Source: an uncultured Planctomycetales bacterium
Lineage (GTDB): Bacteria; Omnitrophota; Gorgyraeia; Zapsychrales; Zapsychraceae
NCBI GenBank assembly: GCA_964364455.1
Contig: CAYIMR010000001.1
Location: forward strand, 2,403 to 66,402
DNA: 64,000 bases
Direction of reading: 5' to 3'
Part shown: positions 16,381-64,000 of the stretch, one piece after another
Layout: the number at the start of each line of letters is the position of its first letter
How positions within the stretch are numbered: position 1 is the first letter of the stretch
Notes under the pieces: generated by a model
Database searches by the model: none
The model's input: the letters and a program-made list of their open reading frames with translations, nothing else
Told to the model about the DNA's origin: nothing
Translations under genes and position numbers: made by a program

Positions 16381-16437
16381 TCATTGCCCCTAAAGGCGCC
16401 GCCCCACCCGGTATTCTCGGTTGCCCGGAAAGGAGTG

Positions 16438-16539
16438 ATGAATAAAATGTTATTCGTACTGGTAACGTTCTTGATGATCGGCCTGGCTTTCTTGATCTGG
16501 ATTGCCATCGACCAATACCGCCTGAAACATCATCATTGA
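16438..16539 (+). CDS. Small hydrophobic peptide 2 (33 aa): MNKMLFVLVTFLMIGLAFLIWIAIDQYRLKHHH
   Basis: AAAGGAG Shine-Dalgarno 3-9 nt upstream of the ATG. Same TM helix plus IDQYR plus HHH pattern. Confidence 0.5.
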   Translation: MNKMLFVLVTFLMIGLAFLIWIAIDQYRLKHHH

Positions 16540-16741
16540 CCGGGTCTGCTTCGTCCCTCGCCCCTCGTCCCTCGTCCTTCATGGCCTCAAAATTCGGCGC
16601 GTTGGTCTTTCGGGCCAGATCTTCCTGAATGCCGCCCTGCGCCAAGACGCCCAAAGAAGCCGTTCGGATTGAGCCGAAGGTTAAGTTGACGAGAGACCGC
16701 GGATATGTTATAGCTACACTGTTAAATCGGGAGGTGGGATA

Positions 16742-16843
16742 ATGGGAATATATATTTTGCTCGGCGGGTTTCTTATCTTCGCGCTTATTATCGCCGAGAT
16801 CGTGATCCGTCAGGACAGGGGCCGCCATCATCACGGAGCTTGA
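16742..16843 (+). CDS. Small hydrophobic peptide 3 (33 aa): MGIYILLGGFLIFALIIAEIVIRQDRGRHHHGA
   Basis: GGGAGG upstream of the ATG. Third paralogue, with a more diverged tail (RQDRGRHHH). Confidence 0.45.
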   Translation: MGIYILLGGFLIFALIIAEIVIRQDRGRHHHGA

Positions 16844-16967
16844 TCCGCGCGATCCTTCTCCGATCGAGGCCTTCTGCGGCTTAAATATAATTCCGCCTTG
16901 ACCATATCTCTCAGACATGTTAGGATTTGACGATAATTTAGAGTAATCTTTAAAAGGAACAGAAAAG

Positions 16968-17207
16968 ATGAAACGATTAAAAGTCTTTAATAATGACCAA
17001 TGGCTGACTAAGCACTTTAAAGAATTAGTAGATAAATACGCTGGTGGATTCATTATCGCGGTTAACGGCAAGATCGTATATACCAACAAAGACGGCTCAC
17101 CGCGCGATTTAGGGAAACGCGTCAAAAGAGAATTCCCTGATGCTACGCCCTTGTTTTTCCGAGTCCCATATCCCCATGAATTTATATGCGCTCTAATCAT
17201 TCTATAA
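16968..17207 (+). CDS. DUF5678-like small protein
   Basis: In the ORF track: MKRLKVFNNDQWLTKHFKELVDKYAGGFIIAVNGKIVYTNKDGSPRDLGKRVKREF.... AAGGAACAG sits upstream of the ATG. From memory this family is typically paired with a retropepsin-like protease. Confidence 0.6.
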   Translation: MKRLKVFNNDQWLTKHFKELVDKYAGGFIIAVNGKIVYTNKDGSPRDLGKRVKREFPDATPLFFRVPYPHEFICALIIL

Positions 17208-17587
17208 AATTCCCCTACAAAACCTACAATAACATACCCTGTCCGATCATCACTCTTGATATCCGCAAAACGGCCATTGACGCCTATATCGATTCCGGAG
17301 CTTTCTACTCTATTTTCTCCATCAAGGAGGCTGAATGGCTCGGCATAGACTACACCAAAGGCAGGCAAGGCGGCGCTATGGTAGGGGACGGAAATATAAT
17401 TCCAGTATATTTTCATATCCTCCCTATAAGTATCGGCGGGATTTCCCTCAACGCCACGATAGGATTTTCCCCCAAACTTAATATCGGCTTCAACCTTTTG
17501 GGCAGAAAAGACATCTTCAACCGTTTTGTCATTATCTTCGATGACGCCAAAAGAAGTGTCACGTTGATTCCCCGCAAACACCAATAA
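17186..17587 (+). CDS. Retropepsin-like (retroviral-type) aspartic protease
   Basis: In the ORF track: ...IITLDIRKTAIDAYIDSGAFYSIF... carries the D-S-G-A catalytic motif. The ORF overlaps the DUF5678 ORF by 22 nt in a different frame, suggesting translational coupling. Confidence 0.65.
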   Translation: MRSNHSIKFPYKTYNNIPCPIITLDIRKTAIDAYIDSGAFYSIFSIKEAEWLGIDYTKGRQGGAMVGDGNIIPVYFHILPISIGGISLNATIGFSPKLNIGFNLLGRKDIFNRFVIIFDDAKRSVTLIPRKHQ

Positions 17588-17599
17588 TTCTTCAGCGCC

Positions 17600-44500: not shown

Positions 44501-47500
44501 GGCCCTCTCAACGGGCCGGAGCATATCGCCGTTGGCGTCCTTGGCCCCAAGCTGATAGCCCTCCGCGGCCGTCTTGGTGCCGGGATTGCGCAACATCCCC
44601 TCCATGTCCGCGATGTTCTTGGCAATCTCGGAACGTTTATCCTGCAGTCTGCTTGAATCCGGACCGAATATCGAGGCCGTGGCGCGATCCGCGTAGGCCT
44701 TGATCTCTTCTTTCAGCGCCGCCACAATGCCGCCGTTCTTGGCCTTTTCCCTAAGCTCGCTCATAAATTTCTCGCCGTTGGTGTCCGTGGGATCTTTGTC
44801 GAGCGCAATGGTCCTGAGACCCTTCAGGAGGTAGTTGCCGTTCATCAGCTTCACGTCCATCTTGCTCACGCCGGCCTCTATCAAATTCCCTATGGCCTTA
44901 GTCTCTTTCAGGAAGGCCTCTTTGTCGTTGCTTTTCCTGGCATCCTCCGCCTTCTTGAGGCCTTCGTACAACTCACGGGCCAGTTTCTCCTCCTTTTTAT
45001 AATCGGCTTCTTTTTGGCTCATGTTGAGATTCTCCTTCTGAACGTCGGAAAGCATCTTCTCATATGCCTTGTCCGTCTTTAATCCCGCGCCTTTCAGGAA
45101 TCCTGTGAGATCGTCGACCGAGGCCTTCATGCCGTACCTGGCCTCCGGCGAAAGCCTGTCGGCAGGCTGTTTGTCTTTTTGAACCTCATATTCAACCTCT
45201 TCCACAGGAGGCATATATCCGTCCGGCAGCCGCCTGGAAGATCCGTTCTTTTCCTGCACAAGCGCGGCAGCGGGATCGTTTTTCTGCTTGTCGGGATAAT
45301 TGGCGCCGAACCCAAGGATACGGGCCTCTCCACTGAAGCTGTCTATGTCAGGGCCTTCCACGATGATGTTGGCCGGCTGCCTGCTGCCCTGAGGCGCCGC
45401 AATAATTTTATGGGCCACAAGCGTCCCGTCGGGTTTACGCCACATGAACTTCACGTCCTTGCCTTCCTCCTGCGGCCATGTCACGTAATCGGCAACATCT
45501 TTTTCGGTAAAGAGATACCGCGAGCCTGTTCCCAAATCAGCGGCAATCGGAATCCTTTGCAACCTCTTCTCAAAGATGGCCACCTCACCCTCAACGGCCT
45601 TGGCGTCCGTATCCTTGTCCTTGCCGCTGTTCCTGATGCCCCAGACATAGGGGAGGTCCTTTGCCTTAACGTCACCCGCATCGACAACCCTGCCTTCGAT
45701 GCCGGCAATGCCCGTGACCATAACCGTGCCCTCCGGCAGCGGCGTTTCGTTGATTATCGTATCAGCCGCGCTCTTGATAATGCCTGCTTCAAACCGCGAG
45801 AACCTCTTAAAGTCGTCGCCATTTAACTCGCGCACCGGTGCCGGCCCGTTAAAATTCGCTGCCGTCTTATTAATCTCCCTGGGATTATTCATGTCAGGAA
45901 TATCGGCCCTGACCACCAGGACTGTCCGGTCTTTAATCTCCGCGGCCCAATCCTCTATCTTGACCGGCCCCTTCGACGTCCCGGCCTTTATCTTGACGAT
46001 CATGACAGGCTCGGTCATCGTCTCTGACTGGTCGACGACAACCATGTCAATCCCTGTCCTCTGCTCTTCTGGAATTGCCGCCAGGATCTTCTGCGTCTGC
46101 CACGAGCTCAAATGAAGCTCATCGGCGTTAAACATCACGGTCTGAGCGGCCTTGCCTTCCCCGTCCTTAATGTCGACGGACTCTATCCTGTTGGGCACCG
46201 GCACAAGGACTGTCTTCTTCTCTCTGATGCCGTCTTTGTTCTTCAGCCATTTCAACCGGAAGGCCTCCTTTTCAACGTCTTCCGGCCTGCCGGTATAGGG
46301 CATGGTGCGCAGATATTCGCCGCGGCTGTTGAGCACAATAAGATGCCCCGTGACGTCCGAAGGATTGACGCTTGACCGCAGGTCTTCAGGGACAAGCGGA
46401 TTCTCAAACCAGTAATGAAGTCTGGCCCCCTCGCGGCTGACGATGACAATCGGATGAACATAGCGGGCATCTCCGTCTTTCAATTCGCCTGAAATAACGC
46501 CGGGATTAACGGGGACCTTCACCTTGTTCCTTCCAAAATAAACCGTCATGCCGTCGCGCTCATATCCCCTTGAGGGGATAGTCAGCGGCATGCCCTCCCA
46601 GTCATAATGCCTGATAAATTTAAACGCTGCCGGATCCCATGTCGCGCCCAATATGATGCCGTTCTGATCTTTTCCGGAGCGGATTTCATGCAGCTCCCTC
46701 AGCCGCGGGACATCCGCCTTGGAAGGCATGATGTACTCCTGGCCTTCCGTCATCATCTGGCCGACGTCTTCAAGGTATTCCTTGGCCGCCGGCTCGGTCT
46801 CGCCCTCAAGTGTATAAAAATGGGGAACGGCGAACCGGACGCGTTTCTCCCAGATGCCGTCCTGGCCGCGGACATATTGATAGCCAAAGAGGAACCATTC
46901 GGGATGCTCTGTGTTTTTGCCATCAACCTCTATCTTGTCCCCTTCGCGGCCTCTGTATAGGGCATAAACTTTGTTCGGATCCTCATTCTCCCTTGCATCA
47001 GTCATGAAGACGACCTGCTGCGCCCCAGGAATCGGCACCGCGCCGTACTTATGCCCTCTTAACACAGAGCTGTCTTTTGGCTTACCGACAATATCGCCGA
47101 GAACCGGCAGATCGCCAAACAGGGAACTCAGCAGATCCGCAGGGAGGTCCTCCAGGATCTGGGCGGGCGTAATGACTATCTCCCTGGCCTTCTTCATGTC
47201 GGTGAAACGGTATTCGCCGGTTGTCTCATCCTTGACCATGGGCAGGGCGCTCATCTTAAGCGTCGTGGCGTCGACAAAGACCCTCGCGGCATCCAATGGC
47301 CCCTGCCATTTATCCACCCGCCAGAACGGATGTTTGCGCGTGATCACAAGGCCGCCTCTCAACGGCCACTCAAGCTGTTTGGCGCGCAGCTCATTGTAAA
47401 TCTTGGCCAGGACCTGGACGTAGGCCAGATACCCCAGGGTCATGGTGGCCGGCGAGGCCTTCGAGAGATCGTTCAAACCAATGCTCTGGACAATCAGGTC

Positions 47501-50500
47501 GAAATAGAGGCTGTAGCTGTTATCTATGCCGACGTTAAAATCTATGGAAAGATCGTTGACCTTGTTGAGGTATTTTCTGAAATTGTAAATGCTGTTGCCG
47601 GGTTTCCAGTTGAGGCCGACGCCGGCGAAGAGCCGGGTCTTGTCCTTTTCTGACAACTCCTCGTATTGCCTGAAAAGGTTGTCGATAAACGAGTACGGAT
47701 CCGTATGAATGGCCTCTGCCGATGCCTTGATAAGGCCGTAACGGGCCTCTTGCTCAAAACGCTTCTGGTCGGCATCGCCGCCCTTGGCCTGGTTGAGTTT
47801 TTTCTCTGCCTTGGCCAGATCTTTATGAAGCCTGGCTATATCCTTGATGATGCGGGCTTCTTTATGCAGGGTTGCCAGCAGCCGGGCAACCTCCGGGCGT
47901 CTGACCACATCCGCGGTCTCAGGCGCGGCCTTCGCCAACTCTTCCATGCTCTTAAATGCCCCTGCATTGCCGTCTCTGAGACGATCGATGTCCTCGGAAA
48001 TCTTGTTGATCTCTGCCTCGAAAAGTCCGGCCTCCTGGGCCCCCTGCAATAAGACCTCCCTGATTGTTGAAACGCCGACAGATTCAAGAACATCAATGGC
48101 CTTAAGCTCAGCGGACGCTTCGGCGAACCGGCCCGTCTCCTTGAGGAAATTATCGTATAAACCGCCGTAGACGCGGCCCATGACGTCCGCGGCAGCCGCC
48201 TTCGATTTCAATAACCGCGCCTCATAGGCCTCGCCGCTCGCCTCGCCCAAATCAGAATCCGTAAGCTTTAACCTGAACAGATAATGCGCCCCTCTCTTTT
48301 CTGCCCCGGCAAATGCCCCGGCTGTTCCGAGAACCGCGCCCGGCTTGATCTCGCCGCCCTGCGTGATCTCAACCGCGCCCAGATGGCCGAAGACCTGTTT
48401 AATCTTGATGCCCTCCTGGCTGGTTGACTCGACGGTAATTTCATAACCGCGCGGCCCGCGCTCGACGGCCGTGACCCTGCCGTCCAGGATGCTGCGCACG
48501 CGTGTCCCTTCCGGCACCACGTGCTCGCGGATGCCTTTCTCATAAGGAATAATCTTATAATCCGGGGAATCGCGCACCGCCATCGTCTCTGAGGTCTGTG
48601 ATTCCAGGAACCTCGGCAGGTCCACTTTTTCCTTGTCGCCGCCTTCCAGGAACGGACTCACCGGATGCCTAGAGAAGATAACGAGACTGCTTGTCATGCT
48701 GTCCGTCCCTGTGGCCTTATTCACAGTCCTAAAGAATCCTTTAAGGATCCGGCCAAGGGCATCGTTGTCTTTGATAATATCCTTGTCCGATATCACGAGG
48801 ACCAGACCCTTTCGGGCGCCTTCCTGATCTTTCAGTCCCTTCCTGGCTAAAATGTCCTCAATGCTGGCCTTTAATGCCCCGGGCAGATGATCAGCCGGCT
48901 CAATGCCTTTGTCTGTGAGCTTCATCAGGCCGCCGTCTTTTCCTTTGAACACCAAATACGGTTCCGGCATATTCAGGCCGGGCTCGCCGGAGAGGCGCAG
49001 GGCCTTGCCCTCAACCATCAATGTCTCAACAACAGGGAATATAACCTCTTTGCCGGACTCCTTCCTGGTCAGCCTGACCCTCTCTTCAATCGGCAGTTTA
49101 TATCCCGCCTCGGACGGGACATCGGCCGGCGCAACCGGACGTTTGCCCTCGGCAGCCATCTTGCGCTCAGCCACGCTGAATTCGCCCGTCCCTGACAAAT
49201 ACTCCGTGTAGCCTGCGGCTTTATCCTGGACAAAGAGCCGGCCGAGCTTGTCCTTGTCAATGTTTTTATACATGGCGATGATCTTCCTGACGTAATCCGG
49301 CGTTTCGTGGTTGCCGCTGATCTGGCCGTTAACCACCTTTGGATAATAGCTGTCGGAATGATCCGGCCCTGCGTTATATCCGGCCAGGCTGTACTGCAGC
49401 AGCTCTTTAAGCGTAGCCTTGGGATACCTGCGGCTCATCTTTTCCATAACCTCCGCCAGATAACTCACGCCTACGGTCACGTTCTTGCGCGGGTCAAAGA
49501 CATCCGGTTCGTACGGCCAGGCCTCGGGGATAACGCCCTCGCGCGCGAGACGCTGGACCGTCGCCTCCCACGTCGTGGCAATAATCTGCATGAGCCCCCT
49601 GGCGCCCTTGGGGCTGACGGCCTTCGGGTTAAACCGGCTTTCCGCGTAAACCGTCGCAAGGACCAATTTGTTAAAATCATCAAAGCTGAAGCCGAATTTC
49701 TTCTCCATGTGCCGGAATATGGCGTACCTGCCCCAGGCCTGCTTCTTAATGGGCATGAGGATATCTTCTTCAAACGACTCGGCGCTCATGACCTCATTCT
49801 CCGCCGCAGCCTTCTTGGCCTTTTCTGCGTCGGATTTCCGGGTGTTCATGCGCTCTATGTCTGCGTCCATACTGTTGAGCGCCTGACGGACGGCGAATTC
49901 CTGGGTCTTCATATCCCAGCGGCCCGTCTCCTCGATCCCAAGGTTTTTCTGCATCTCTTTCACGCGCTGTTTCAGGGCTTCCGTGTAAACGTCCGCGTTG
50001 GCCTCGGCGTCATGCTTAAACGCCATCATCTGCGCCATGTTTTGATAAACGGCCTTTTCATCGCCGGCCGGTTTGTTCGCCTCGGCGAGCCTTACGATCT
50101 GGCGGATGTGACGGACCTGCCAGCCTTTGTCACCCGCGTCAAACGTCTTTGTGTTGCGCCGGCCGAACTCCTCGGTCTCTTTCTTCATGCCCTCAAGACC
50201 AAGCATCTCCTGCTGATCGGCCAGGCTTTGCAACTGCTCTTTGATCCGCTCTTTCTCCCGCGCGTTCTCCGCCAGTTCCATCTGGGCGTTGAGCTTTTGC
50301 CGTTGTAAATCCATCCTTGCCTTGTCCTGTTCCCCGGCGGAGACCTTGCTCACCTCTGCCTCCAAATCCTTCTCGGCAAGATGAATGGCAGCTAAGTAAA
50401 ATTCTTTCTCTTTTCTTTGCAGCGTATTCCGCGCTTGTTTGAGCTGTTCCTTCGCGGCGGTGGAATCTTCCTTTTGCTGTTGAATGCGGTTGACTTCGAG

Positions 50501-53500
50501 TCCGGCCTCGATGATCGCTTTGCGAAGATCCCTTAACTCCGGCTGGACGTCTTTGAGCCTGGCCATCGCGGCTAAAAGCGCCTTTCTTTCTTTCATGGAA
50601 GGATCTGTCCGGCCTTCATATTTTGCTATGATCTCTTTTTCCACGAGGATCTGACGGTCTTCCTTCGTAAAGACATTCGCGTTCTCATCCCTGCCATGCG
50701 TCCTGAAGAAAATTTTGGTCACGTCCCTTAAAGGCATCTCATCGACCGGATAATCCGCTTCCCTTAACATCTCTTTGAGCTGCTTGATATCTTTCCCGTA
50801 TCCGAGGGCGAGGTTAAACCGGCCGAGGGAAATTTCCTCTTCTGCCGAGGCAAGCGCCCGGGCCGAGTCAAGGATTTTCTTCTGAAGCGCCCCTGTCTTT
50901 TCTGTCAGCGCCGCGGCCTTTTGTTCCGAATCCCTGGCATCCTTTTCCGCCGCTTTGAGTGCCCTGGCCTTTGCCTCGAAAGACGTCTTCAGGCTCCACT
51001 GTATTTCCCGCAAGCGGCGGTCTTCCGCTTCGTCTTTGTCGGCTTTCTTCTCACGCGCCGCCGCGCTTTCTTCCACGGCGGTAATGATCTCCTCATGGAG
51101 GCTTCGAAGCTCCTGCTCTTTCTGGTGAATTTCCTCCCGGACCTTAATCATCGCGTCCTCTGCCGGAGTTTCTGCTGACTGGGCGGCGCCTTGAACAGGC
51201 AAGGATGCGTAAGATTTCTTATACAATTCACTGAGCTCTTTAGTGACGCGCTCCGCCTGCATCTGTTTTAAGACAATCGTCTCATCGGGCGTTCTGTCCG
51301 GCTTATTCTGTAATTTCTCGATTTTCTTCACTAAGTCATTCTGTGTAACAGCTTCCATCATGCGGGACAGCTCGCCCTGCATCTCCATCAGCCTGCCTTT
51401 ATGCTCAACATCCAGCGTCTTGCCGTTCTCCAGCTCCTGCATCTGACGGATAATGTTCCTTGCCTTGGATCTTTGATCATAAGGCAGCGCATCCACCAGC
51501 CCCTCGACGCCCTGCCGGTTCTGCCCGCCGGAGGCGAGAGAAGCCATCGATCCTTCGCGCATCTGAGGAAGCTCAACGCCAAACCGGCTTAAGGCATGCT
51601 CATTGGCAAAAGACGTTGCCTGGCCCGCGGCCTCCTCGGCCACGCCAAAGATATCCTTGCCGATGTTCAAGATGCCTTTCGGACCTTCGAGGGCCTGCGT
51701 CCAGACATGGAACGGCCCGCCTATCAATTCGCCGGCAACGGTCACCGCGTGAATCTCTGCGCTGATGAGCCACAGGCCAAGAACACCTTCCCAGAACCGC
51801 CTCGCGATTCTAAGGTTAAACCAGATGTCTGCGGAAACAGATTCGCCGCTGCGATACGCGTCATAAATGCGGATGAGATTGGCAAAAAGACCGACGGAGA
51901 TAAGGTATAACGTCTTTGCCACGGCCTGCGGATAATACCGGAGGGTTGTTTTAAGGCGGGCGATTCTTCTTTTTGCCGCCGGAGGCGCCCTTGGCTGCTC
52001 AACGCGCATTTGAGCGCTCAGGGCATTGAATTCCTCCTCAAGGATGTACCGCAGGTGCCTGCCGGTCGTATAGAAAATTTTTCCTTCCCCTGCGTAAAGA
52101 ACCTTGAATACAGATTTGACATAATTTTCTCCTTGACCGCTCAACTCTGCCCCTGTCTTTCTAAACGCTCTTAATTGGGTAATAACCGCCCCTGCGTCAA
52201 TATCCATACTCGTGCGTTTCTGCAGTGTCTGTTTGTAAACTTCTTTGATCAAAGGACGCAGATTCATGAGCAGGGCTATGACAATCGTATGGAAAATCCC
52301 ACCGATCGTGAAAGAAAGTTTCAAACCGCCCTCGCCGACAAAATGGGCAGCCTGGACTGCCTTCAGCGGCGATACGAACAGCCTCAAGAGATGTTCCAGG
52401 ACATCCCATTGAATAAACACCCCGCCCAAGAGGTATGCGCCGGCGCCGGCGGCGAGGATACCGCTAACGATATACAGTGTCAGACGGGACGCTGTAAAGT
52501 CGACCATGCTGGCCAGCATGGGCACCTGCCACCACAGCGCGCGTAGCCGCCGGCTGAGCCAGCCAATCACTCCGGCTTTCATCCATCCGGATCCGCTCCT
52601 GACCTCAGCCACAACGCCTCGAATATGGTCTTGCGCGGATACCTTCTGCCTTGTGGTTCTTTGCCATGAATCGACCAGTTTCTCGAACCAGTTATCCTGT
52701 AATTTCAGTGCCACAAAGCCAAATCTGCCGGACGGTTTCATGGCAAAGAACCACCAGAAACTATGCAACAACATCTCCCCTGCGCCCGTCAACACGGCCA
52801 GCGGCATAGAAATCGTTCCGTACCGGGAATAAAGCCTGCGGGTGTATTTGATTTTGGATTCACCTTGCTGCGATTTCTTAAACATCTTATAAGATTCTTT
52901 AATCAATCTTAATTCGACCTCTTCCTGTTCTGCCGCGGAAAGGCCTGCGAGCAAATGAGCGTTCTTACCGGAAACCGCCGGCTTGACCTTTTCCTTCCAG
53001 GAAGCCGTCTCGCCACTCCACAGCCTCCAGCCGAGGACCGTGATAATGCCCATGAAGGAAAACAGAACCATGCCCAGCGCTATAAGCGATGTGACCTCAA
53101 AAGAGAATATGGAAAAGAGCACTGCCGGAAGCCATGAAAAACCGACAGCGGCGGTCATAATACCCGCAAGGAGCCCTGCTGATAAGATGCTGACGGCCTC
53201 TCTTGAAAGAAATCTTTCCTTCAAATGTCTCCATCGCCCGGTCTCTTGTGCCCCCTGCACTTCCACAGGACTTGAAACGCGCATCCCTGCGGCTTTCTTC
53301 TCTCGTCCCTCGTCCTTCATCCTTTGTTCCCCAACCGGGCTGGAAGCAAAAAGCCGTGGTGCTGGATTTGCAAACTCCCCGCCGTCTTTATCCAAACGTA
53401 TCTTCTCAAATCCTCTTCTTCTTAAAATACTGGCTATATCGTAGGCAGTCTGCGCGCATTCGTTATCGACAGAGAATCTGACCGCGTCGACATAATAAAT

Positions 53501-56500
53501 CACACTGTCTAACAGACTCGTAAATATGCCCTGTCCTTCGACATTGTATTGCCTCATATCAAAGCCGCCCAAATCAAGAATATTCCTTCCTTCTTCACTT
53601 CTTAGGCCAAAAAGTATATATGGATGCTCCGGCAGGGTACTTTCTTCCGGAAGTCGTGTATAAAGTTCCTCTTCGACAGAAACAGCCTCAAGATAAATCA
53701 CTTTTTCATTTCCCCATAACTGGATGGAAACAATGACGTTATATTCCCTCCCATCCTTTGCCGTAAACCTTGCGCCTTCGAAATATTTTTGGATCATCTC
53801 TTCGGTTATTCTTGCTTTTTCTGCTGAAGTTCGTTTTCTCACGGGGCTGGAACTCTTCACCGGCGAGGAGGCCTTGTCTTCTTGATGATCTTTCTTTTCT
53901 GCCGTATCCTGCATCTTGAACAATGCGCCTTCTTGCGTCTCCTTGGAACCCCGTCTTTCTAACACGAAAAGAACTGCCTTGGATACAACAGTAAAGACAA
54001 CAAAGACGAATCCGTAATAGGCGCGCGGATACAGGGACCGCAATGCCCTGAAGGCCGCTCCCGCCACAATGACTGAAACCCCCGTCCCAAACATCCCTTC
54101 TGTAAAGAAATAGCCCCCGGCCAAAAGGCTGGTCAGGCTGAAACCCCCTCCATAAACGCGCAATAGGATCTTCAGGCCCGCAAGAGCTGAAATCACAGGC
54201 AAAGACAAAAGTCCGAGGATAATCAAGAACGCCGCCGCTGCTGCCTGAAGCCTGTTGGCAATCAGGCTCTTCCATACGCCGGCCACGCGGCCTATCCCGC
54301 GGCGAGAGGCGCCTTTCGAATCAACAGGGCTGGAGGCGTTTTCAACGATAGACAAAGGATGAGGGATAAAAGATACGGCCATCCCTCGTCCCTCATCCTT
54401 CGTCCCTCGTCCTTCGTTAATTGAGCGCGCTGGTTGAGGTTCGGTAGCGCGGAATTCGCTTGTCACTAAAAGCTTCACAGACAAGTTGCTGGATACGGCT
54501 TTCGCTGAAGCCATCGAGTTCTTCCCAGGTTTGGTTGATACCATTGCGTTGGTACGCACGGTTCTCACCGGTGAGAACAAGATAGACCTTAAGGCGGTTA
54601 TGATCTTTGTCTTTTGCTGTAACAATGACGCAATTCGACGTGGGAACGTAGACAAAATGCTTGACTTCAAGGTTTGCACAGCTTGTGTTAAGTCGGACCA
54701 TGACAGACCTCCTTTGTTTTCGTCGCTCGTCGCTCGTATTTCGTATTTCGTAACGGGACGAACAACAGAAAGGGCATGATCAGTCCCAACCAAAACACCG
54801 GGACCAACCAGACCCTTTCGATTAACCACTTGATTTAATTTATCCTGTGCCCAAATAACTAAACGAGATACGAGATACGAGATACGAGATACGGCATTAG
54901 GTAAGCGGGCAAAGTAAGCAGCAAGCAGCACGGATAATAAGGCGATCAGGATCGTATTATTATCCATATTGCCTTTTAAAGCGGAGACAGACGGAATAAT
55001 ACTGAAGAGGGCGGTTAAACCCCTGGCGGTATTCGCGTTAACTCCTTCGGACACACGACGAGAAACATCCGAACGCTCACGCGAATCTTGAAGCGGTAAT
55101 CCAATCGGACTTGCGGCTGCACTAAACCAGCTCTCCCTGGACTCGCGGCTTCCAGCTACACCTTCAGAAGCTTCACGTGCTCCAAGGACGTTTCTGTATT
55201 GATCAACAAGGCCTACATTCGTAGAACCTTGATTGTATCCAACCCTATCAGCAGCATTGCCGTTGATTCCAATAGTCCTTACATCTATAACTACGGACCA
55301 GAGAACCTCAACAGCTTCGTTCCTGGTTAAGGCCTGCCCTACTTCTAATCCAGCAGACACTCCAAGAACTCGAACGATCCTATACCCATCATTTCTGATG
55401 GACACAGACCGCGCACTGCTTTTTCCACTTATAAGAACCACATACTGAGCTAATCCAGACCCAACTGTCGCAGGGCCAGATTCAGAATTCTTCTTATCAG
55501 CCAATTCTGAAATGGCTTCAACTTCACCAGCTGTCCTATATTCACGAGATCCCTTCCTGTTAACCAGGACGAATTCGTGTCCATAGTACTTCAGCACTTG
55601 CGCTACTAACTCCGCTACTTCTGCCAACCGTCCTCTAACATATATATATATCAGAGTAGATTGGGTACTTCTGCTGCTATTCACTCCATTCGCCACTCTT
55701 ACTGCCTGAGACACACTTCGAGAATCAGCTACTCCTTCATTTTGACCATTATGGCTTAACCCATTATGATCTGATGAGTTAGAAACATACACTTCTGACT
55801 TCTCTACTGCAAACACCACTTCTACTGTATTCTTTATCCGCTCTCCTGCCTTTTGCACTGCCTGATCCACTGCGGAAGTGGACGGCAGCTTCCAAATGCC
55901 CGGACTAGGACCGCTTCTGCCAAAGTTTGTACTAGTGTCCTGAGAAACCTGCCTGATTGGGTTATGTGCCCTGGAAACTTCTTCCTTTATATCAGGAGCC
56001 TCACCAATGCTGTTTTTCTTAATCTGGGCATACCAATCATTATGACTTGGGGCCTTTTTCACCACCTGGACTATCGGAACATCCCCAACAACACGACTGG
56101 GCGGAATGCCACCGACCGCTATTGCGGGGATGGCGGTAGCAGGCCGATCATCCCGGCCAAATGGTAACGCATCTGTTCTGGTTCCCGTATCCGCCTTGGT
56201 CGTCATAGACCCACGATCAAGCTCGTAGGTTCCCTTGATATTGCCTTTCTGATCGATCTTAAAAGGTGTCTTTCGGTCACGAGCGAGGCCAAGCTGCATA
56301 ACAGGCAATGACAGGATAGGTGCGATAACTGGCGTTCCAGGACCAAAATCTGGCGGCATAATAATAATAGGTGTTGGCGGAACAGGCAGTATGGCCTTCT
56401 CTGGGGCTAAAGAAGGTGTCATGGTCTTGAGTGCCGGCTGACCGTCAGCGGCTGTTGTTGCGGATGATTCCACCGCCGCTGACTCTTTATTCTTGCCCGA

Positions 56501-59500
56501 GAAAAACTGTTTCAAATCTTCGAAGAATTGCCCCACCCCGCGCAAGAGCGCCGGCACAGCGTATAATTCCTTCATGCGTTGCGCCGTTTCCGCGGCTTTT
56601 CCGGAAACTACCGGCGAAGAGGCGCCGCCTTCAGCCTCAACCAGCGAGCTGGCTACCTTGTTTCCATCAACCTGCAATTCCCCAATTTCAGAATCGAATT
56701 CAATTATCCTGGTTGCGAGGCGGCCCTCGTTCATGTATTCCGCGTAATTCCCTCCTACCTCCTTTAGCTCATCCCTAACTACATTGACAAACTTATCAAA
56801 GCCGTAATCTTCGCTGGTTTCATTTAAAACCAACCGTACCTTTAAATTATTAAGGCCAGCCCCTGAACCTTTAAATTTATTTAACATCACGCCATTAATA
56901 AAATTCTTCGTATATTTTTGCATCTCGGCCGCAGAAGCCATCGAAAGAGGAGGGGTTAAATGCCCTAAAACCGCAACTTTATTATTGAGATCATATACAA
57001 GAACTCCCAAGCTTCCGGCTAAATTCCGTGTGGTTAATTTCCCCTTGCCTGTTTCGGCACCCCCGACAGGAACCTCAACGGGGAGAAAAGGAGTCACCTC
57101 ATTTACCGCCTGCTGAATCTTTTGATTAAATTCCCGGATCTCTTCTTTAGTGATGTTTCCTTCCTCCGCGCGTAAGCGCCGCTTGCGAATATCCTCTTCG
57201 GAGTCAAACTTGATTTGTTTTGTTCCAATGTCATCAATGACCCTTCTTACCAGCATCGCGGCGGCCACAGATGCCTTGATGCCATCTCGCAAGAAACTTT
57301 GTTTTTCACGGCCATCCAACAAACCCACATACAGTTGTTCATTCGCCTCAATGTTCTGTAAGGAATCTCTATAGCTCGCCTCAACCCGCCTGTTGGCCTG
57401 CTGGAGCATGCCTTCATAAAAATCCTTTGACCGCGTTTTCACATCCACCAAACCCAACAGATCAGATACGACATTCTCCCTTTGAGCAAACAACTCTTCG
57501 CTGCCGATGTATAAGAAAGCGAGGGCGTTCATTAACCTATCCTTATCCTTCTGCTCAATCTTACCGATATCTTTTCTCTCCTGATAATAAGTCCTATTAA
57601 TAACCTTGTAATCAACCGGCCCTAAGTCTGTTTCCCATCTGCCGTTTATAAGACCGCGCGTATCATCGGGCAGTTCCGCGACAATAACAACATCAACATC
57701 TTTCCACAGGCTGCTTCCATGGGCCGCGGCATACACAATTTCTGCCTTTTCACCTAATTCCGCGCGCACATTATTCGGGACAATTTCTTTCAACCTTCTC
57801 TTTTCAGCTTCGGTCATCGGGCTGGAGGCGCCCTTGGACTGGGCCAAAACAATTCTTCTTTGCGCCGCGCTGGTATTTTGCGCCTGACGAATCATCCATT
57901 CTCCAATGGCTTGCTCAGGGGCCGTCATCTCTTTGCCGGGTAAACTTTGGATTTCCGTCGGCGTGAAAGGTTCAGCCTCGGCCACCATGCGGTTGAGAGG
58001 GATCTTTCCCTCATTTAATAACTGATAAGGCTTAACCTCCTTATTTTTAACCTCTTCCCCTTTGGCATCAGCGCGTCCTTGACCATAGGCAATGTCCCTA
58101 TTATCAATTAACTCAGCTGGCACACCTTTTAGCGGTATGCGCACAAAACCACCTGTGACAGCCGGCAATGTTTCCGTATGACTTGTTAATTGGGAAAGGT
58201 TGAAATTCCCCTGGGACCTGATCTTCTGATATTGCTGCGAAGAAATCTTCAATATATTCGCGTCCCGGGCTTCCACTTTAATTTCATAATCATTCACCCG
58301 TTCTGCCTTAAGGCCTATTGCTGTTGCCTGGATATTTCTCCCCTTGGCATCCTTGATCACCGGAACAGGGATATCCGCGTATTCGCTATTAATCCTTTGA
58401 CTATCAAAGGCAACCTCATAAAGATCGCCGGTAACACGGTCAACGAGATGGATTTCAGGAGCCCCCGCCTGAGGAGATACCTTTGATCGGCGCGGCATTC
58501 GCACAACCACTTCCGGCTGTGCAATGGCATATTCAACAGGTGTTAAATTATCCGGATGATCAAATTCCTGCCGCATAACCCTTGGCAAATTATGTTGAAT
58601 GTATGCGCCCACATCCATTGATGTCTGCCCAATAGCCTCTTGAGCGACTAAATCAGCCACCGTTAACTGACGGTCAATGATCTCATCACCGGCCTGACGG
58701 CCATGAACATTTGAGATGGCCCCGATATTATTGCCATCCAGGCGATAAACCAGGATATCCTGGTTAGCGGCATCCCAAACAACAATGCCATATTCGTCCG
58801 AACCCGGCCCCATCCTTGAAACAATGGCCAAATTCTCCGCAGGGCGTGTACGGGCCACCATATTGATGAAGGCCTTATAGTTATCATTACCGACAAAAAT
58901 ATTCTGTTTACCGGGTATTCGAGAGCTTGTATAACTCGCCTGGCTGGCAATCATCGAATCAATAATTTTCTTTGCCCCGGGGATATCCCCAAAATCAACC
59001 GCATCATAAAACGCTTCTTCTGTCTCTCCGGGGATCTGTCCTGAATACCCTTGCGAGAGAGTATCAAACCCGAAGTCCTCTATGCCGATAACCTTTGCCT
59101 CACGGATCGCTTGTTGCATATCCGGCGTATACGTCGCAACCGCGCTCATCGGCGCCGTCTTGGATTCTTTCAATAATGGTTCTCGAATTTTTATTAACCG
59201 TTGGTTCACTGTCTTATCTGTTCCCGGAGCGTCCGGCCTTTTTAGCGCCTCCTCGACAATCGCCTGCCGCGTTTGCGGCAATTTGTTGCTGAATTCACTT
59301 AATTGGACATACTTCCCTGCCTGGAGAGCCTCGCTATAAAGATTATCGGCTATTTGCTTGGCTTCTGTTAAATTGACTTCTGCCCCACCGGTATAAACCG
59401 GTGAAATACCCGCGTAAAAATTCAAATCCCCTGCCCCAAAGGCATCCACCTTCTCTTTTAATTCCGGATGCTCTTCCGCGATCTCTGTTTTAATACGGTT

Positions 59501-62500
59501 AACAATTTTATTCCTGAAATTATCGGTCACCGCGTCTGTCCTCAAGAGAACATTGCTTAAAACATCCTCGGTGAAACTAACCCCTCTTTCCGCGCGGGCA
59601 TTTCTTTCTCTATACCCGGCTACTTGTGCCTGCCGCGGGACCATTACTTGAGGAGCGCCCTCGAAAACAACAGCATAATTAGGCCCGGCCTTATAGATAT
59701 CAAAATCAATATCTTCTTCATTTAACGGTGCCTCGCCCTCTTTAACCGTTTGATTGTAACTCTTGACCGTCTCGCGAATGGCTTCTCGAATCGCACCATT
59801 TATCTCAGGGCCGGTATACGCCAGGACCTTATCCCCTATTTCATGGCCAACCCCTAATTCTTCACCCAGGGTATTAAGCCATTTCAGATCCTGAAGTTTG
59901 ATCATTGAAATACTAACGGCCTCCTTCCCCTTCTTCACTCGCGATATTAAATCCTCCTGGAGTTTAGAATAACTCTTGACTCCACCCGTTCTCGTAAATC
60001 TTTGTTGAAGGCTCTCAAATGTTTTGACAACGCCGCTAATAGCTGACTTGTCAACCGGGGATCTGGCCTTGACCGGCGAACTGGACGCCTGAGGGTTCAA
60101 AACATCTTTGATCTTCGGCGAAATGGTGATTTTCATATCGCGGGCCGGTTCCACCGGGCTGCTGGACGACGGGCCTTGAACCAATTCGGGCGGCGCCGCC
60201 TGAATTGACTGTCCCATGACCGGCGAGCTGGAAAGTTTAATAGTGACAAGACTTCCTTCCGCCCAACCCCGGGCATTGAAAGACCCAAAGGATCCGTCGT
60301 CAAACTTCACGTGAACGACAAACGTGTTAATACCGTATCCCCTCGGCATAAATCTGAAACTATGAATCGTGCCTAACCCCTGAGCGGTGTGCTTAACTCT
60401 TGCGCCTTTCACAACACCCTTTTCTCTCAGAGAGCCCAGCAATTCCCGTGCCCCCTCTTTTTCCTCTGGAGTCAACTTCACCGGCGAGGCCGCGGATTGA
60501 GGTTCCCTGCGCCCGATCACCACTGCACCCCAATTGGGCCCTCTCGAAATGGGCACATTTGCTACAACTTTTAACCCGGATTCTTCCATTTCAGAGACAG
60601 AATCAAAATGCCTCGTCTCTCCGCGTCCACCACTATTCATCACAACATGCCCGCCCGGGCGCAGATTCGAAACAACTTTTTTGAAAAGATCCCCGCCTAA
60701 GAAAGGAGAATAACTCACATATAAAACATCATAACCGCTGGCACCGTCGAGAGAATCGCTGGTAACTTCAGGAGGCACAAATGACGCAGCGTCTTTGTTG
60801 ACATAGTAAATGATCTCACGATTTTTTATCCTGCCATCTGTCGCCGGAAGGCCGAACGTAAAGACGGCCCTGGAGGCATCGCTCAAATCCATATTCAAAT
60901 CAACGGCTCCTACCCCTCGCAGTTGTTTCTCGATGGCCGTGAAGTTATCCAGTCCGTTCGTATCTCCCATGAACTGCCGGGAGAGATCTACAAATACATA
61001 ACGCGAGGCATCTGTTGCGGCCAAAGGTCCAAGCACATCAAATCCAGCGCCGGGATAATAAACCGTGATATCCCTGCTGCCATCAGGATTGATTGCCGAA
61101 GGGCCGATCCTCCCCAGCATCTCAATCTCAAACGCCCTAACGGGCCGTGTCTCTTCGGTCAGCTCAGGCCCAAAATTCACGCCGCCTTTTAGACGTTCAA
61201 TAAAATGTTTCCTATTCCCAGGTTGCCCCACAGGGCTGCTGGAAGCGATAAGGTCACGGGCCGCGGCTGCATAATCTCTCTCTTTTGCAGGAAGCCTTAC
61301 AAGATACGCCTCATCAATGCTTGCGGCCAACTGCTTAATAAACGTTTCAGAAACATGCCCGCCCCAGGGACTGTTCTGCCTAATACTTGCCATAAGGGCA
61401 TCCGTGCCCTCAATCTTTTCAACCGTCTGAGAGGTATAATCCGGGCTGACGTCAAGCAGAACAACCTTGTCCACCGTAACAAACTCGGGCCTCTGATTCA
61501 CATCTGCTCTGATAAGCTTGCCGTTCTGCTCCCTGTCCCTGTAAGGCAATCTCCCAGCACCTTTAACATAGTTGGGGCCGGCAATAAAAGTTTCATCAAA
61601 GAAAAATCCGACAGGGATGTCATCAATTACCAGGGCATAATCGCGTGGGTTCAAGTCAAAAATTTCACGGCTCAAAGTAGATTTGCCGCTTTCCGGAACG
61701 CCCAGAATCAGCACCCCTCCATTTGTCCGATTGTCAACGAGGACATTGCCGTGTATCGAATAGACATCCGCATCTTTCAATCCAAGGTCACGCAGCTCCT
61801 GCTTTAATGCCACAGGGAGACTGACATTCTTCAAATTATCCAAGCCGGTTTTAACCTTTTTGTATATCCGGTTGGAAAGATTCAGCACATCTTTCAGGGT
61901 CACCGGCGAGGAGGCGGCAAGATAGGCCGCGGCGGCCGCGTAATCCTTCTTTTCTTCATTTTCAGGAAATTTCACAAGGTACGCTTCATCAATGCTCGCG
62001 GCCAACTGCTTAAGAAATTCCTCAGAGACATGCCCGCCCCAGGGACTGTTCCGCCTGATGATTTCTATAATAGCCTCGGGTGAATTAATTTTCTCAACTG
62101 TCTGGGAGGTGTACGCGGGGCTGACTTCAAGCAAAACAACCTTCTTAACCCTTACAAATTCAGGCATCCGATTTACGTCCGCATCATTTATGAGTTTTCC
62201 TGTCCGATCTCTGTAAGGCAACGTCCGCGCCCCTTTGACATAGTTAGGACCGGCGATGAATGTCTTCTCATCAAAGAAGAACCCAACAGGAATATCGTCA
62301 ACAACCAGGGCGTGGCGGCGGCTCAAATTCAGAATCTCATGGCTCAGTAAGGATTTTCCACTTTCCGGGGCCCCCAAAATCAGAACACCCTTGTCTGTCT
62401 GAGTGTCAACGAGAACATTGCCATGCATCGGATACACCTTCCGATGGAGTTTTTCCTCTAATGTCGTTGGGAGGCTGACATTTCTTAGATCATCTAATCC

Positions 62501-64000
62501 CTCCTTTATTTCTTTATATGTTGTATCGGCCGTATTGAGGACTTCTCGCAATTGGGATTTGAATCCGTCATCGTCTCGACGGCCTGAGGACAGCCTGCCA
62601 GCTTTTCTGAAATAATAACTATTCTCACCCAGCGGCTTGAATCCTAATCCCTTGAAGAATCCTTCCCAGGCCGCTTGCGCTCCCGATTCTTCTCCTAAAT
62701 AGACAAGATTCGTACCCAAAGAATAGTCTGTGCCAAATTCTTGAACAAATTTACGTACCAGCTCTCTGCCGTACCCATTACCGCCCGCTTGCGTCCCGAC
62801 CTCGACATGATACAAATTGAGGAACTTGTCATTGTCCGGATTAGGCTGAATGGCCACAAGGACGGCGTCGGGACGTTTGCTGTCTCCCATGTAGAGAACT
62901 TCTACTTTTGTATTTTGCTTAAAGGCTTCTAAAATATTTTGATCATTGCTGCCGACCTTTCTTTCTAACCGGCTAAAGGCTTTAAAATTATCCAGGATAT
63001 TCTTGACGTCATTTTGATCCGCGGCTCTATTCACAACAGGGCTGCTGGAGATTTCCATATTTGTAGTAACTGAACTCTCATAATACTTATCAATGAGGCT
63101 TGCCAACTGGCCCAATGTGCTGTCATTATTGTCCTCAACGACAGCGGCGGGCATGAATTCGGCAAATTCTTTCTTATAATCAACAACATCCAGCGTCTGC
63201 GCGTCCTTAGAACTAAACGCCAGCGCGCGGAGAGAATTGATGATCTTCTCACCCGCGAGATCCACAATGTTCTTTTGCTCGTCGCGTACGGCTTGAGTAT
63301 CGGCCGTCGCGGAAAGAATTTCCGCCTGCCTGGTCCATTGAGGATTGATGGCGATCCGCGCCTCGAGGCCTTCTCCCTGGATATACGCGTCGGAACTGAC
63401 AATAAGCGCGTGGCTTTCTGTGCCATCCGCCAACGGTGTGCTGACAATAATCGCTCTCTGCAAACGGGCGCGCGACACATCGACATTGCCGCTGCCGGAA
63501 ATCTTCTCCAAGATCGTATTAAATTGACCCGGGCTGACGCGCTTGACCTGCCCTTCGGCGATCGTGATCCCCTGCTTGATCCCGATGTTCAGGGCGACCG
63601 CGTAATCCCTGTCTCCTTGCGGAAGATTAAATTTGCTGTTTTCCTTCCACGCGTCCACGGGAAGCGCCCTGGCAAGGATGCGCGATCGCCAATCGGACGG
63701 GATCCGGATGTCCGGTTCGCCGACAAGAACCGCCGCGTTTTTCTCAACTTCATCAAACGTCACTTCGTTGCCCCCGGTATCGTAAAACACCTGGCGCGTG
63801 ATCGTCTTCTGGACCTTATGGATACTGCCCGCTTCGTCTTTCTGTTCTTCCACCACGGTTTCCAGGACGATCTTCCCCGTGAAGATCTTCCGGCTGTCGA
63901 CCCCTATCGACCCGATATAATCTCTGACGGCCTCTGCCGTCTGGTTATCCGGGACAGGGACAAGGGTCAGCCGGCCGGTCCTGCCGAGGGTAACCGCTTT
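17600..64000 (-). CDS. Giant multidomain fusion ORF (ORF-R). The N-terminus lies beyond window end 64000. An in-frame ATG at 54380-54382 has an open frame upstream of it. One apparent frame discontinuity was verified at about 40735-40745, and at least one more is implied. The C-terminal end near 17600-17840 is unresolved.
   Basis: Hand translation of the reverse strand gives continuous protein with the modules listed below, and many motifs were verified against the plus strand. Not in the supplied ORF track. Confidence 0.45.
17640..17830 (-). other. Module: Gly/Ala-rich hydrophobic segment (possible C-terminal membrane anchor), following SSSPVID
   Basis: GTIETLLGLGVAAVATAAIGVGAYAVAGTFVAAAGIVYVAAKQLGVL verified at 17701-17840. 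Confidence 0.35.
19140..19860 (-). other. Module: class I SAM-dependent methyltransferase
   Basis: VVADFGSGAGGLT (motif I, verified at 19686-19724) and GVDVVVSLDTLFHL. Confidence 0.55.
19900..20950 (-). other. Module: HIT-superfamily GalT-like nucleotidyltransferase
   Basis: YWNGPGRSIKHHAHFQGFLGRFPIDKREVVDL verified at 20221-20340 (His-phi-His-phi-His HIT signature). An upstream Cys pair GDGKCNLCAAY is present. Confidence 0.5.
21000..22600 (-). other. glgA: Module: glycogen synthase (GlgA, GT5)-like
   Basis: MEFGPLVKVGGQGDVMHELFKAFAKAGKDVSVVMPYF, IIHTNDHHTALA, NGIDFEVWNPATD. ...AMRYGTLPLVRKTGGLADTV verified at 21281-21340. Confidence 0.6.
23560..24570 (-). other. Module: MidA/NDUFAF7-like (DUF185) SAM-dependent methyltransferase
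   Basis: VVEMGGGDGSLMVNFMEAL and SNELLDTFPVHRVV. Preceded by RQGSSSPVE (verified at 24575-24595). Confidence 0.4.
24600..26370 (-). other. Module: UDPGP-family UDP-sugar pyrophosphorylase (UGPase/UAP-like)
   Basis: LGNLDAGLGTSLERESYVK verified at 26041-26100 (LNGGLGTSMG signature position). Confidence 0.5.
26400..27400 (-). other. Module: Pol-beta-superfamily nucleotidyltransferase
   Basis: GGYAAGSVPSGEAVEGSDIDMHIHFGEG verified at 26641-26700 (GS...DxD motif). Confidence 0.5.
27430..28420 (-). other. Module: Gfo/Idh/MocA-family NAD(P)-dependent oxidoreductase
   Basis: IALVGLGRWGGGVMLNVL (verified at 28322-28390) and HYELARQALLAGKDVLVEKPLA. Confidence 0.5.
28450..29600 (-). other. Module: radical SAM domain with a C-terminal Cys-rich (SPASM/twitch-like) extension
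   Basis: MGCNNYCVWCTRL (CxxxCxxC) verified at 29371-29400. Downstream Cys clusters: FTQCQHCKF...YPCTSVS and QCPDCTRF. Confidence 0.55.
30500..34700 (-). other. Module: polytopic integral-membrane blocks (many predicted TM helices; possible GT-C or transporter-like fold)
   Basis: Long runs of hydrophobic helices, e.g. MANFFSFAVLLTGFIGSGLALGYVSLLAGVLPLGLSYLSVVPPFAITLFLLIA and LVLVNVITFVLLQVVLFIDPAHSFPFAGAFVTSGFVLALSIV. No fold could be assigned by eye. Confidence 0.4.
39950..40900 (-). other. Module: TIM-barrel glycoside-hydrolase-like domain (clan GH-A-like). The frame breaks inside it.
   Basis: HLRDIDLMKEMGVRVIRTYYPITSKAFLDKLAENGIKVIVGFPYF (frame A, verified 40741-40920), then DNTRNRGPDMLGGGYIDYIKKHKDHPAILMWSFGNDYNDL (frame B, verified 40621-40740). 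The NE-type catalytic position reads ND. Confidence 0.45.
42200..43100 (-). other. Module: beta-barrel-like segment with alternating hydrophobic pattern (porin/OMP-like)
   Basis: ...NVTLNFSLNREHEKGYLDLW...YFTAEQAIGSNRFSLTGRYKNLNVSYSNVKGAETYGVGLNINKDVKIGVSKD...YAKYNLLSF. Based on composition and pattern only. Confidence 0.3.
48250..48650 (-). other. Module: LytM/M23-like beta-fold domain (catalytic motifs degenerate)
   Basis: GTRVRSILDGRVTAVERGPRGYEITVESTSQEGIKIKQVFGHLGAVEI...GAHYLFRLKL verified at 48181-48300. Confidence 0.4.
49350..49900 (-). other. Module: soluble lytic transglycosylase (SLT) domain
   Basis: AESRFNPKAVSPKGARGLMQIIATTW verified at 49561-49680 (ES...GLMQI signature), and ...LAGYNAGP downstream. 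Confidence 0.65.
50000..51900 (-). other. Module: long coiled-coil region
   Basis: About 600 residues of E/K/R/A/Q/L-rich heptad-like sequence (e.g. ELRSLHEEIITAVEESAAAREKKADKDEAEDRRLREIQ...). Confidence 0.4.
52200..54382 (-). other. N-terminal region after the in-frame ATG at 54380-54382. It contains clustered SSPV motifs and two blocks of TM helices.
   Basis: MAVSFIPHPLSIVENASSPVDSK..., TM helices (FLIILGLLSLPVISALAGLKILL, LSAGLLAGIMTAAVGFSWLPAVLFSIF). ASSPVKSSSPV verified at 53843-53870. Confidence 0.4.
54385..54420 (-). promoter_or_regulatory. Purine-rich GGACGAGG-type tandem repeats immediately upstream of the in-frame ATG at 54382 (Shine-Dalgarno-like)
   Basis: Minus strand reads aacgaaggacgagggacgaaggatgagggacgagggATG. 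The same repeat family occurs at 15845-15885, 16545-16580, 53295-53325 and 54721-54750. Confidence 0.3.
54417..54701 (-). CDS. Small ORF (94 aa, MVRLNTSCANLEVKHFVYVPTSNCVIVTAKDKDHNRLKVYLVLTGENRAYQRNGINQTWEELDGFSESRIQQLVCEAFSDK...). It overlaps the giant reading frame in a +1 frame.
   Basis: In the ORF track. The AAAGGAGG Shine-Dalgarno sits 6 nt upstream of the ATG (verified at 54702-54716). The sequence is globular-looking, whereas the giant frame is low-complexity over the same span. Confidence 0.4.
   Translation of the reverse strand: MVRLNTSCANLEVKHFVYVPTSNCVIVTAKDKDHNRLKVYLVLTGENRAYQRNGINQTWEELDGFSESRIQQLVCEAFSDKRIPRYRTSTSALN
54858..54890. repeat. Tandem heptamer repeat (GAGATAC)x4
   Basis: Directly visible: gagatacgagatacgagatacgagatacgg. 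It encodes (SRISYLV)-like residues in the giant frame. Confidence 0.8.
56640..57820 (-). other. Module: unassigned alpha/beta module between ASSPMT (about 57815-57835) and ASSPVV (verified 56610-56635)
   Basis: Protein-like translation (…VDVVIVAELPDDTRGLINGRWETDLGPVDYKVINRTYYQ…VEVPVGGAETGKGKLTTRNLAGSLGVLVYD…). No confident family assignment. Confidence 0.25.
60480..61220 (-). other. Module: Rossmann-fold methyltransferase-like
   Basis: ITVYYPGAGFDVLGPLAATDASRYVFVDLS...GYDVLYVSYSPF. Assignment is tentative. Confidence 0.3.
61240..61890 (-). other. Module: HprK-C-like P-loop kinase/phosphorylase domain, copy 2
   Basis: NGGVLILGVPESGKSTLSREIFDL verified at 61653-61705. Confidence 0.5.
61900..62600 (-). 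other. Module: HprK-C-like P-loop domain, copy 1 (tandem paralogue, about 80% nt identity to copy 2)
   Basis: KGVLILGAPESGKSLLSHEILNL verified at 62326-62378. The duplication is visible at DNA level when 61261-61400 is compared with 61921-62070. Confidence 0.5.
62640..63030 (-). other. Module: GNAT-type acetyltransferase-like
   Basis: HVEVGTQAGGNGYGRELVRKFVQE verified at 62761-62815. It follows MEISSSPVVN (63038-63058). Confidence 0.4.

Follow-up and report, generated by a model that had tools for sequence, protein, structure and literature searches.

Two predicted HprK/P-fold modules in a giant multi-enzyme open reading frame with a recurrent SSPV junction motif

The 64,000-nucleotide stretch of contig CAYIMR010000001.1 (assembly GCA_964364455.1, from an uncultured bacterium with an Omnitrophota lineage in GTDB) that was analyzed here, referred to below as the window, is spanned on its minus strand by one giant open reading frame (ORF). 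Close to the N-terminal end of the visible protein, this ORF encodes two adjacent modules, K1 and K2. Sequence profiles and a structure model place both modules in the HprK/P (PEPCK-like) fold superfamily as a new, divergent branch, and we do not file them as HprK/P enzymes. The reading that we favor, with a probability of roughly 0.7 for its parts taken jointly, is that two HprK/P-fold modules reside in the giant ORF as cassettes delimited by the peptide SSPV, that they have a putative kinase role, and that they came to lie side by side through a recombination patch. In the numbering used throughout, the frame begins at base 64000, and residue i starts at 64000-3(i-1). The ORF and the features of the two modules are as follows.

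2..64000, minus strand: giant multi-enzyme ORF, 21,333 codons in one frame with no stop, continuing past either edge of the window
61901..62569, minus strand: K1, first copy of the predicted HprK/P-fold module, aa 478-700, 223 aa, ending in ASSPV
61229..61900, minus strand: K2, second copy of the predicted HprK/P-fold module, aa 701-924, 224 aa, ending in SSSPV
62351..62374, minus strand: Walker A of K1, GAPESGKS, aa 543-550, aligned with GDSGVGKS of L. casei HprK/P
61679..61702, minus strand: Walker A of K2, GVPESGKS, aa 767-774
62423..62425, minus strand: His526 of K1, in MHGNVLVD, the equivalent of HprK/P His140 by alignment
61751..61753, minus strand: His750 of K2, in IHGNVLVD
62294..62299, minus strand: Asp568-Asp569 of K1 (VVDD), the predicted equivalent of HprK/P Asp178-Asp179
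61619..61624, minus strand: Asp793-Asp794 of K2 (VIDD)

An earlier note on this DNA, made from the sequence alone, had described tandem duplicated modules at this site, and two adjacent copies are indeed present on the minus strand, with 66% protein identity over 227 columns (E 4e-98). The alignment spans the whole unit of ~224 aa, so the similarity is not confined to a short low-complexity stretch. The peptides that had been quoted are also found, namely the P-loop segments GVLILGAPESGKSLLS and GVLILGVPESGKSTLS, the downstream segments VDDIPVGFFFDE in copy 1 and IDDIPVGFFFDE in copy 2, NSPWGGHVSE in both copies, LAASSPVT between the copies, and LIASSSPVG after the second. The nucleotide identity had been put too high, at roughly 80%; it is 70% overall (214 aligned codons), and the direct-repeat DNA blocks within the modules, which are spaced 672-675 nt apart, range from 72% to 82%. 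Each copy has the same layout, with an N-terminal helical hairpin, a core holding the His, Walker A, and Asp-Asp motifs, C-terminal helices, and a terminal [A/S]SSPV. With a hidden Markov model (HMM) of the family, the two copies score 269 and 273.5 bits, and a scan of the window with this model found no third copy. Tandem Repeats Finder reported no repeat, the period being above its limit and the copies divergent.

K1 and K2 are old paralogues, both kept by purifying selection. Their identity at codon positions 1, 2, and 3 is 78%, 83%, and 49%, respectively, which indicates that selection acts in the minus frame. The nonsynonymous divergence (dN) is 0.20 and the synonymous divergence (dS) 1.93, the latter saturated; together with a dN/dS of 0.11, this marks an old duplication under strong purifying selection, as opposed to a recent tandem expansion or an artefact of assembly. 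A plus-strand ORF of 200 aa that begins with ATG (61205-61807) runs antisense to K2 and is probably spurious, because the pattern of identity across codon positions is that of the minus frame.

Relatives of the modules are few. When 1.84 billion representative proteins were searched exhaustively with HMMER, ten matches were obtained in all: four frameshifted fragments of near-identical sequence, five genuine distant homologues, and P0005, a repetitive beta-helix-like protein that was dropped as spurious. The distant homologues are 23-25% identical to the modules and all lie within large proteins; three of the five (P0007, P0008, and P0010) are partial giant proteins from metagenome-assembled genomes (MAGs) of Candidatus Omnitrophota. 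The family member P0006, in which a methyltransferase is flanked by a module on either side, passes the gathering cut-off of Pfam PF07475, Hpr_kinase_C (56.2 against 33.3 bits). A shallow family alignment of eight modules, A2, was used as a profile against 5.8 billion sequences and retrieved 17 proteins, all 17 of which are PF07475 proteins. With hhalign, A2 was matched to short HprK-C proteins (98.9%, E 2.5e-17) over 96 columns that include the His, Walker A, the Asp-Asp pair, and the signature Arg. In a sequence search of the PDB with A2, the top five matches were all HprK/P (4.4e-10 to 8e-6), and ABC ATPases followed at 1e-4 or weaker. An AlphaFold (AF2) model computed from A2 (pLDDT 85.5, pTM 0.86) also points to this fold. 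Its top Foldseek matches in the PDB are 1KKM, 1KKL, 2QMH, 1KNX, 3TQF, and 1KO7, all HprK/P, and then PEPCK, which has the same fold; the top matches reach E 2e-7 and TMt 0.57-0.59, and ~180 of the 223 residues are aligned to HprK/P C-domains. Other searches were less productive: a PDB search with a two-sequence profile gave generic P-loop noise only, a word-indexed protein search with one copy found just a frameshifted fragment of the same sequence, and scans with back-translated patterns, run over GTDB genomes and over JGI metagenomes, yielded no relative of the module.

Compared with the HprK/P C-domain (PF07475; L. casei 1JB1/1KKL; the short stand-alone HprK of Alphaproteobacteria), the modules share the fold as judged by Foldseek and profile-profile homology, as well as the motif series HG...G-x4-GKS...DD...R, and, like the short HprK forms, they are without a MurE-like N-terminal domain. 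They differ from it in being only ~18% identical and below the Pfam cut-off, in having an additional N-terminal helical hairpin, and in occurring two times within one protein of more than 21,000 aa, where no HPr partner is seen. Some of the results weigh against the assignment to this superfamily. PF07475 is the best Pfam match but a sub-threshold one, at 22.3 bits for K1, 11.7 bits for K2, and 26.5 bits for both together; the TM-scores to HprK/P are only moderate (0.46-0.59); and the AF2 model was built on only eight sequences, with two copies as the sole input giving an unusable result (pLDDT 42). The best NCBIfam matches are HPr kinase models that, like the Pfam match, stay far under the cut-off and cover the P-loop only. 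The label of HprK-C-like P-loop modules, given in the earlier note, is therefore upheld at the level of fold and superfamily but not as membership of the Pfam family.

A different identity for the modules would be that of generic P-loop nucleoside triphosphatases whose likeness to HprK is just the Walker A motif. The Pfam match spans profile positions 9-52 only, and for copy 2 several AAA and P-loop families reach similar scores. However, the columns aligned by hhalign extend beyond the P-loop to the His, the Asp-Asp pair, the signature Arg, and the strand that follows; the PDB sequence matches to HprK/P are ~10^5 to 10^6-fold better than those to ABC ATPases; and the Foldseek alignment covers most of the module. 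A generic P-loop identity thus appears highly improbable.

The roles of individual residues in HprK/P, including His140, Asp178/Asp179 (proton acceptor/donor), and the Mg-binding Glu204, have been described (PMC9399212). K1 and K2 both keep His140 (in MHGN and IHGN, aligned to SMHG of the L. casei enzyme), the Walker A residues Lys161/Ser162 (GAPESGKS and GVPESGKS, which fit GxxxxGK[ST]), Asp178-Asp179 (VVDD and VIDD, aligned to IADD of the L. casei enzyme), and the signature Arg (LPYR), and a hydrophobic strand with an acidic end (VVLLE/VVLLD) is present as well. Of the Walker motifs whose integrity the earlier note wished to see checked, Walker A is intact in both copies, and the classical Walker B test is inapplicable, because HprK/P is a "Walker motif A-containing" enzyme, in the words of a reference title in PMC9399212.

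By analogy with HprK/P and with the HprK homologues of lasso-peptide systems, the most likely function of the modules would be kinase activity on Ser/Thr of a protein or peptide. Each module would bind ATP (or pyrophosphate) via its P-loop and phosphorylate a protein or peptide on a Ser/Thr hydroxyl, as these enzymes do; a segment of the giant protein could itself serve as substrate. Lasso-peptide HprK homologues of the paeninodin type phosphorylate a Ser of a non-HPr peptide (PMC8498205). They are also divergent HprK-fold enzymes, and they show that the fold has been re-used for other Ser substrates. The likeness to them is at the fold level, and the window is one ORF in which Pfam scans found none of the precursor, the B/C enzymes, and the PqqD-like domain.

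The main rival on function is that K1 and K2 are catalytically dead sensor or scaffold domains of the HprK/P fold, that is, pseudo-kinases that bind nucleotide or phosphate. A number of departures from HprK/P favor this alternative and count against an active kinase. In both copies, a Pro takes the place of the Mg-binding Glu204. The ExRGxG signature (residues 203-212) reads LPYRDR versus LEIRGLG, which reduces RGxG to the Arg. No counterpart is evident of the Arg245/RLP loop, which in the hexameric HprK/P comes from an adjacent subunit, there being no conserved Arg after the VVLLE/DV strand in the family alignment. The P-loop is GxPESGKS rather than GxSGxGKS, so that the conserved, HprK-specific Gly at its fourth position is a Glu. 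Finally, a Pfam scan of all 21,333 aa of the window gave no PTS-HPr match. On the other hand, although the synonymous divergence between the copies is saturated, neither has lost the His, the Walker A Lys/Ser, the Asp-Asp pair, or the signature Arg. Where acidic and Arg residues of HprK/P are not matched, the family is variable as well (P/P/D/T/D/R/K/E at the Glu204 position), suggesting that it may use other residues. We consider a loss of catalysis rather unlikely.

The peptide that closes both modules recurs along the whole protein. [A/S]SSPV is a junction motif of the ORF, with complete enzymes between motifs. SSPV occurs 27 times versus 0.21 times expected from composition, mostly as [S/A]SSPV ([A/S/T]SSPV), and there are five SSPI in addition. 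In no case does SSPV fall inside a Pfam match, multi-domain enzymes are never split by it, and whole enzymes lie one per unit between successive SSPV. The unit at aa 16467-17150 (684 aa) is a complete GlgB, of which residues 51-681 align with free-standing GlgB genes at 51-60% identity, equidistant to many phyla and thus uninformative on taxonomy, and the unit at aa 18786-19586 is a complete HD-RelA/SpoT-ACT enzyme. The motifs are distributed from aa 319 to 3576 and from aa 12196 to 20921, with none in aa 3577-11484, the stretch of SLT, PG_binding, M23, and GH2. The claim that each module is bounded by SSPV is correct for the end of both copies and for both sides of K2, which fills the unit 697-921 exactly, but fails for the start of K1; the previous SSPV is at aa 319, and K1 occupies the unit 319-697 together with a weak GNAT-like segment. 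The junctions and units around the modules, some of which mark breakpoints of homology to the related contigs described below, are as follows.

63035..63046, minus strand: preceding SSPV codons, aa 319-322, opening the unit with the GNAT-like segment and K1
62570..63034, minus strand: weak GNAT-like segment in the unit of K1, aa 323-477, matched by three GNAT Pfam families, all sub-threshold (best E 9e-4)
61901..61912, minus strand: SSPV codons at the K1/K2 junction, aa 697-700, the exact homology breakpoint versus contig_433, contig_299, and contig_6124
61229..61240, minus strand: SSPV codons closing K2, aa 921-924
60230..61228, minus strand: next SSPV-bounded unit after K2, aa 925-1257, orphan sequence
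56609..56620, minus strand: SSPV codons, aa 2461-2464, at which homology to contig_433 resumes exactly

The codons used for SSPV vary (TCC-TCG, TCC-AGC, AGC-AGC, AGC-AGT, and so on), which indicates that selection acts on the peptide. A role as a fixed DNA recombination signal was rejected, since the codons vary, though a subset of the sites shares TCCTCGCCGGTG. In the AF2 model the SSPV residues lie in the low-confidence tail, where a linker would be expected. The conservation of SSPV would be unexplained by a generic flexible spacer, and the motif may be kept because something recognizes the peptide, for example a processing or modifying enzyme. In P0009, another giant protein (L002 3001-25572), the homologous module lies between two copies of a recurrent motif of its own, RSETR; RSE[T/A]R occurs nine times in that protein versus 0.1 expected. 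In P0008, a transmembrane helix followed by NFNFA is found four times.

For the unit that follows K2 (aa 925-1257), searches of Pfam, of the PDB, and of 5.8 billion proteins detected no homologue. Its identification as a class I methyltransferase was considered and dropped, as it came from motifs seen by eye (YYPGAGFD, LRPGGHVV) with no homologue, and no pairing of kinase and methyltransferase is claimed for the window. In P0006 and P0010, a Pfam-supported methyltransferase adjoins the module. Elsewhere in the ORF, a direct repeat of 215 nt that is 100% identical (window ~12346-12560 and ~7438-7652) begins exactly at SSSSPV codons. Its first copy forms an 81-aa unit that ends in SSSPI and repeats the opening 69 aa of the RelA/SpoT unit. 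Either part of a cassette was duplicated very recently, or the repeat is an artefact of assembly.

The sole near relatives of the window are three error-prone contigs (contig_433, contig_299, and contig_6124) of one ENA metagenome assembly, ERZ1286166, from a single sample. Along contig_433 (L003), identity to the window is 98.6% as far as the ASSPV that ends K1, and K1 is the only copy present; after K1 this contig carries 3.5 kb without similarity to the window (L003 11347-14896), made up of three SSPV-bounded units, and it rejoins the window precisely at ASSPV2461. contig_299 (L004) and contig_6124 (L001) match the window at ~90% over the first ~300 aa, continue with a different 0.86-kb cassette that ends in ASSPV (L004 9038-9898; L001 8947-9806), and match the window again from exactly ASSPV697 on, at 99.5% over 8.6 kb in the case of L004. 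K2 is present in both, and both are without the GNAT-like segment and K1. Homology in related contigs thus starts or stops exactly at SSPV, which bears out the proposal of the earlier note that duplication respects the linker and that the evolution is cassette-like. The comparison strongly supports the view that whole cassettes have been gained, lost, and exchanged between SSPV motifs. The 215-nt repeat that starts at SSSSPV codons and the P0009 module bracketed by RSETR are both in keeping with this rule.

Judged from the sequences compared, K1 beside K2 is one haplotype-specific cassette arrangement. Each related haplotype has just one of the copies, so the two may have been brought together by cassette recombination instead of a tandem duplication in place. 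The window looks like an H2-type gene with an H1-type patch whose right end is at the SSPV codons, and the adjacency would most economically arise by a recombination patch between H1-like (K1) and H2-like (K2) alleles at these codons. Two observations are unfavorable to this history: the K1-K2 adjacency is seen in the window only, and some changes in identity lie off SSPV, as in the patchy stretch of aa 2500-3090 and at the left breakpoint near aa 300. Among the haplotypes, aa 2461-3090 form a patchwork of 40-98% identity, and aa 3090-4560 are ~100% identical.

Alternatively, the module and its SSPV could have been duplicated locally in tandem in an ancestor, with the single-copy haplotypes arising by later replacements. 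The copies do follow one another head to tail, SSPV immediately precedes their junction, and cassette replacement clearly happens in the giant gene. Two independent replacements from unknown donors would be needed, however, where one H1/H2 patch is a single event. In addition, the window resembles H1 left of SSPV697 (98.6%) but H2 on the other side (99.5%), and a dS of ~1.9 makes the paralogues far older than the differences between haplotypes. A simple in-place tandem duplication is not established, and we regard this history as possible but doubtful.

That H1-like sequence gives way to H2-like sequence precisely at the junction, where ~14 nt (GCCTCCTCGCCGGT) are common to both haplotypes, could also be the mark of an assembly chimera of two co-occurring strains joined at the short shared sequence that encodes SSPV. 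Yet 14 identical nt would not suffice for an overlap or an ordinary k-mer join, and splicing the two contigs does not exactly reproduce the junction sequence. The part to the left has ~1% substitutions versus contig_433 and the part to the right ~0.2%, so the window was not built from those sequences. Moreover, the frame is open for 64 kb, and a misjoin through the similarity of K1 and K2 would yield one hybrid copy, not a tandem pair. A chimeric origin is very unlikely, and the recombination patch is the explanation that we retain for the adjacency.

More generally, the ORF resembles the giant ORFs reported for Omnitrophota ("Archaeovorins," bioRxiv 10.1101/2023.11.21.568195; "multi-enzyme metabolic clusters," bioRxiv 10.64898/2026.06.07.730766). 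Like them, it is stop-free over more than 64 kb, with tens of thousands of codons and many unrelated enzymes, including cell-wall hydrolases and sugar-metabolism enzymes. The same mix is present in the window, with SLT/M23 cell-wall hydrolases together with starch synthase, GT1, radical SAM, methyltransferases, and GNAT. Pfam matches along the ORF are SLT, PG_binding, M23 peptidase, GH2, radical SAM, GFO_IDH (GFO/IDH oxidoreductase), UDPGP, several methyltransferases, three glycogen-synthase-like pairs of GT5 and GT1, GlgB (a complete branching enzyme with CBM48, alpha-amylase, and Amy_C), and HD-RelA/SpoT-ACT. The three Omnitrophota MAG proteins among the few distant relatives of the module are a further, indirect link to this group. 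Neither of the two preprints mentions HPr-kinase-like domains, the SSPV motif, or defined cassette junctions, and a preprint on giant Omnitrophota genes states that the absence of information on cleavage points hindered the analysis of giant-protein processing.

On the favored reading, the module family is a very divergent, formerly unannotated branch of the HPr-kinase fold, so far found almost only in giant proteins. The junction motif matters more, being enriched more than 100-fold, sparing domains, bracketing whole enzymes, and coinciding to the residue with the breakpoints of swaps. SSPV sites are concrete candidate boundaries for cutting giant proteins into units for structure prediction, and they offer a handle on how giant genes are built and diversified. 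Concatenated whole enzymes in one frame, with short, conserved, lineage-specific peptides (SSPV here, RSETR in P0009), also recall viral polyproteins and the like, by analogy only. Giant Omnitrophota-type ORFs might then be true bacterial polyproteins, with the pentapeptide as the recognition site of a processing or modifying enzyme. The motif would divide the product into discrete enzymes and set the unit of cassette duplication, swapping, and loss between strains, and the Ser-rich junctions could themselves be targets of the HprK-fold Ser-kinase modules, which would control processing in this way. This extension is speculative, and we think it improbable as it stands.

A few further features of the ORF were observed. 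Cysteine makes up just 0.1% of its residues, and 0.03% of those of the related giant protein P0009. Two pairs of stretches show internal paralogy at ~28% identity: window 22004-22603 versus 8705-9337, which are two GT5 glycogen-synthase-like domains, and window 5381-6082 versus 4307-5068, which are two stretches of aa 19307-19898 holding ACT-domain matches. At aa ~1334-1407 (window ~59780-60000) there is a weak match resembling a diguanylate cyclase (GGDEF), to NCBIfam DgcS, with an E value of 4e-4 that is far under the cut-off.

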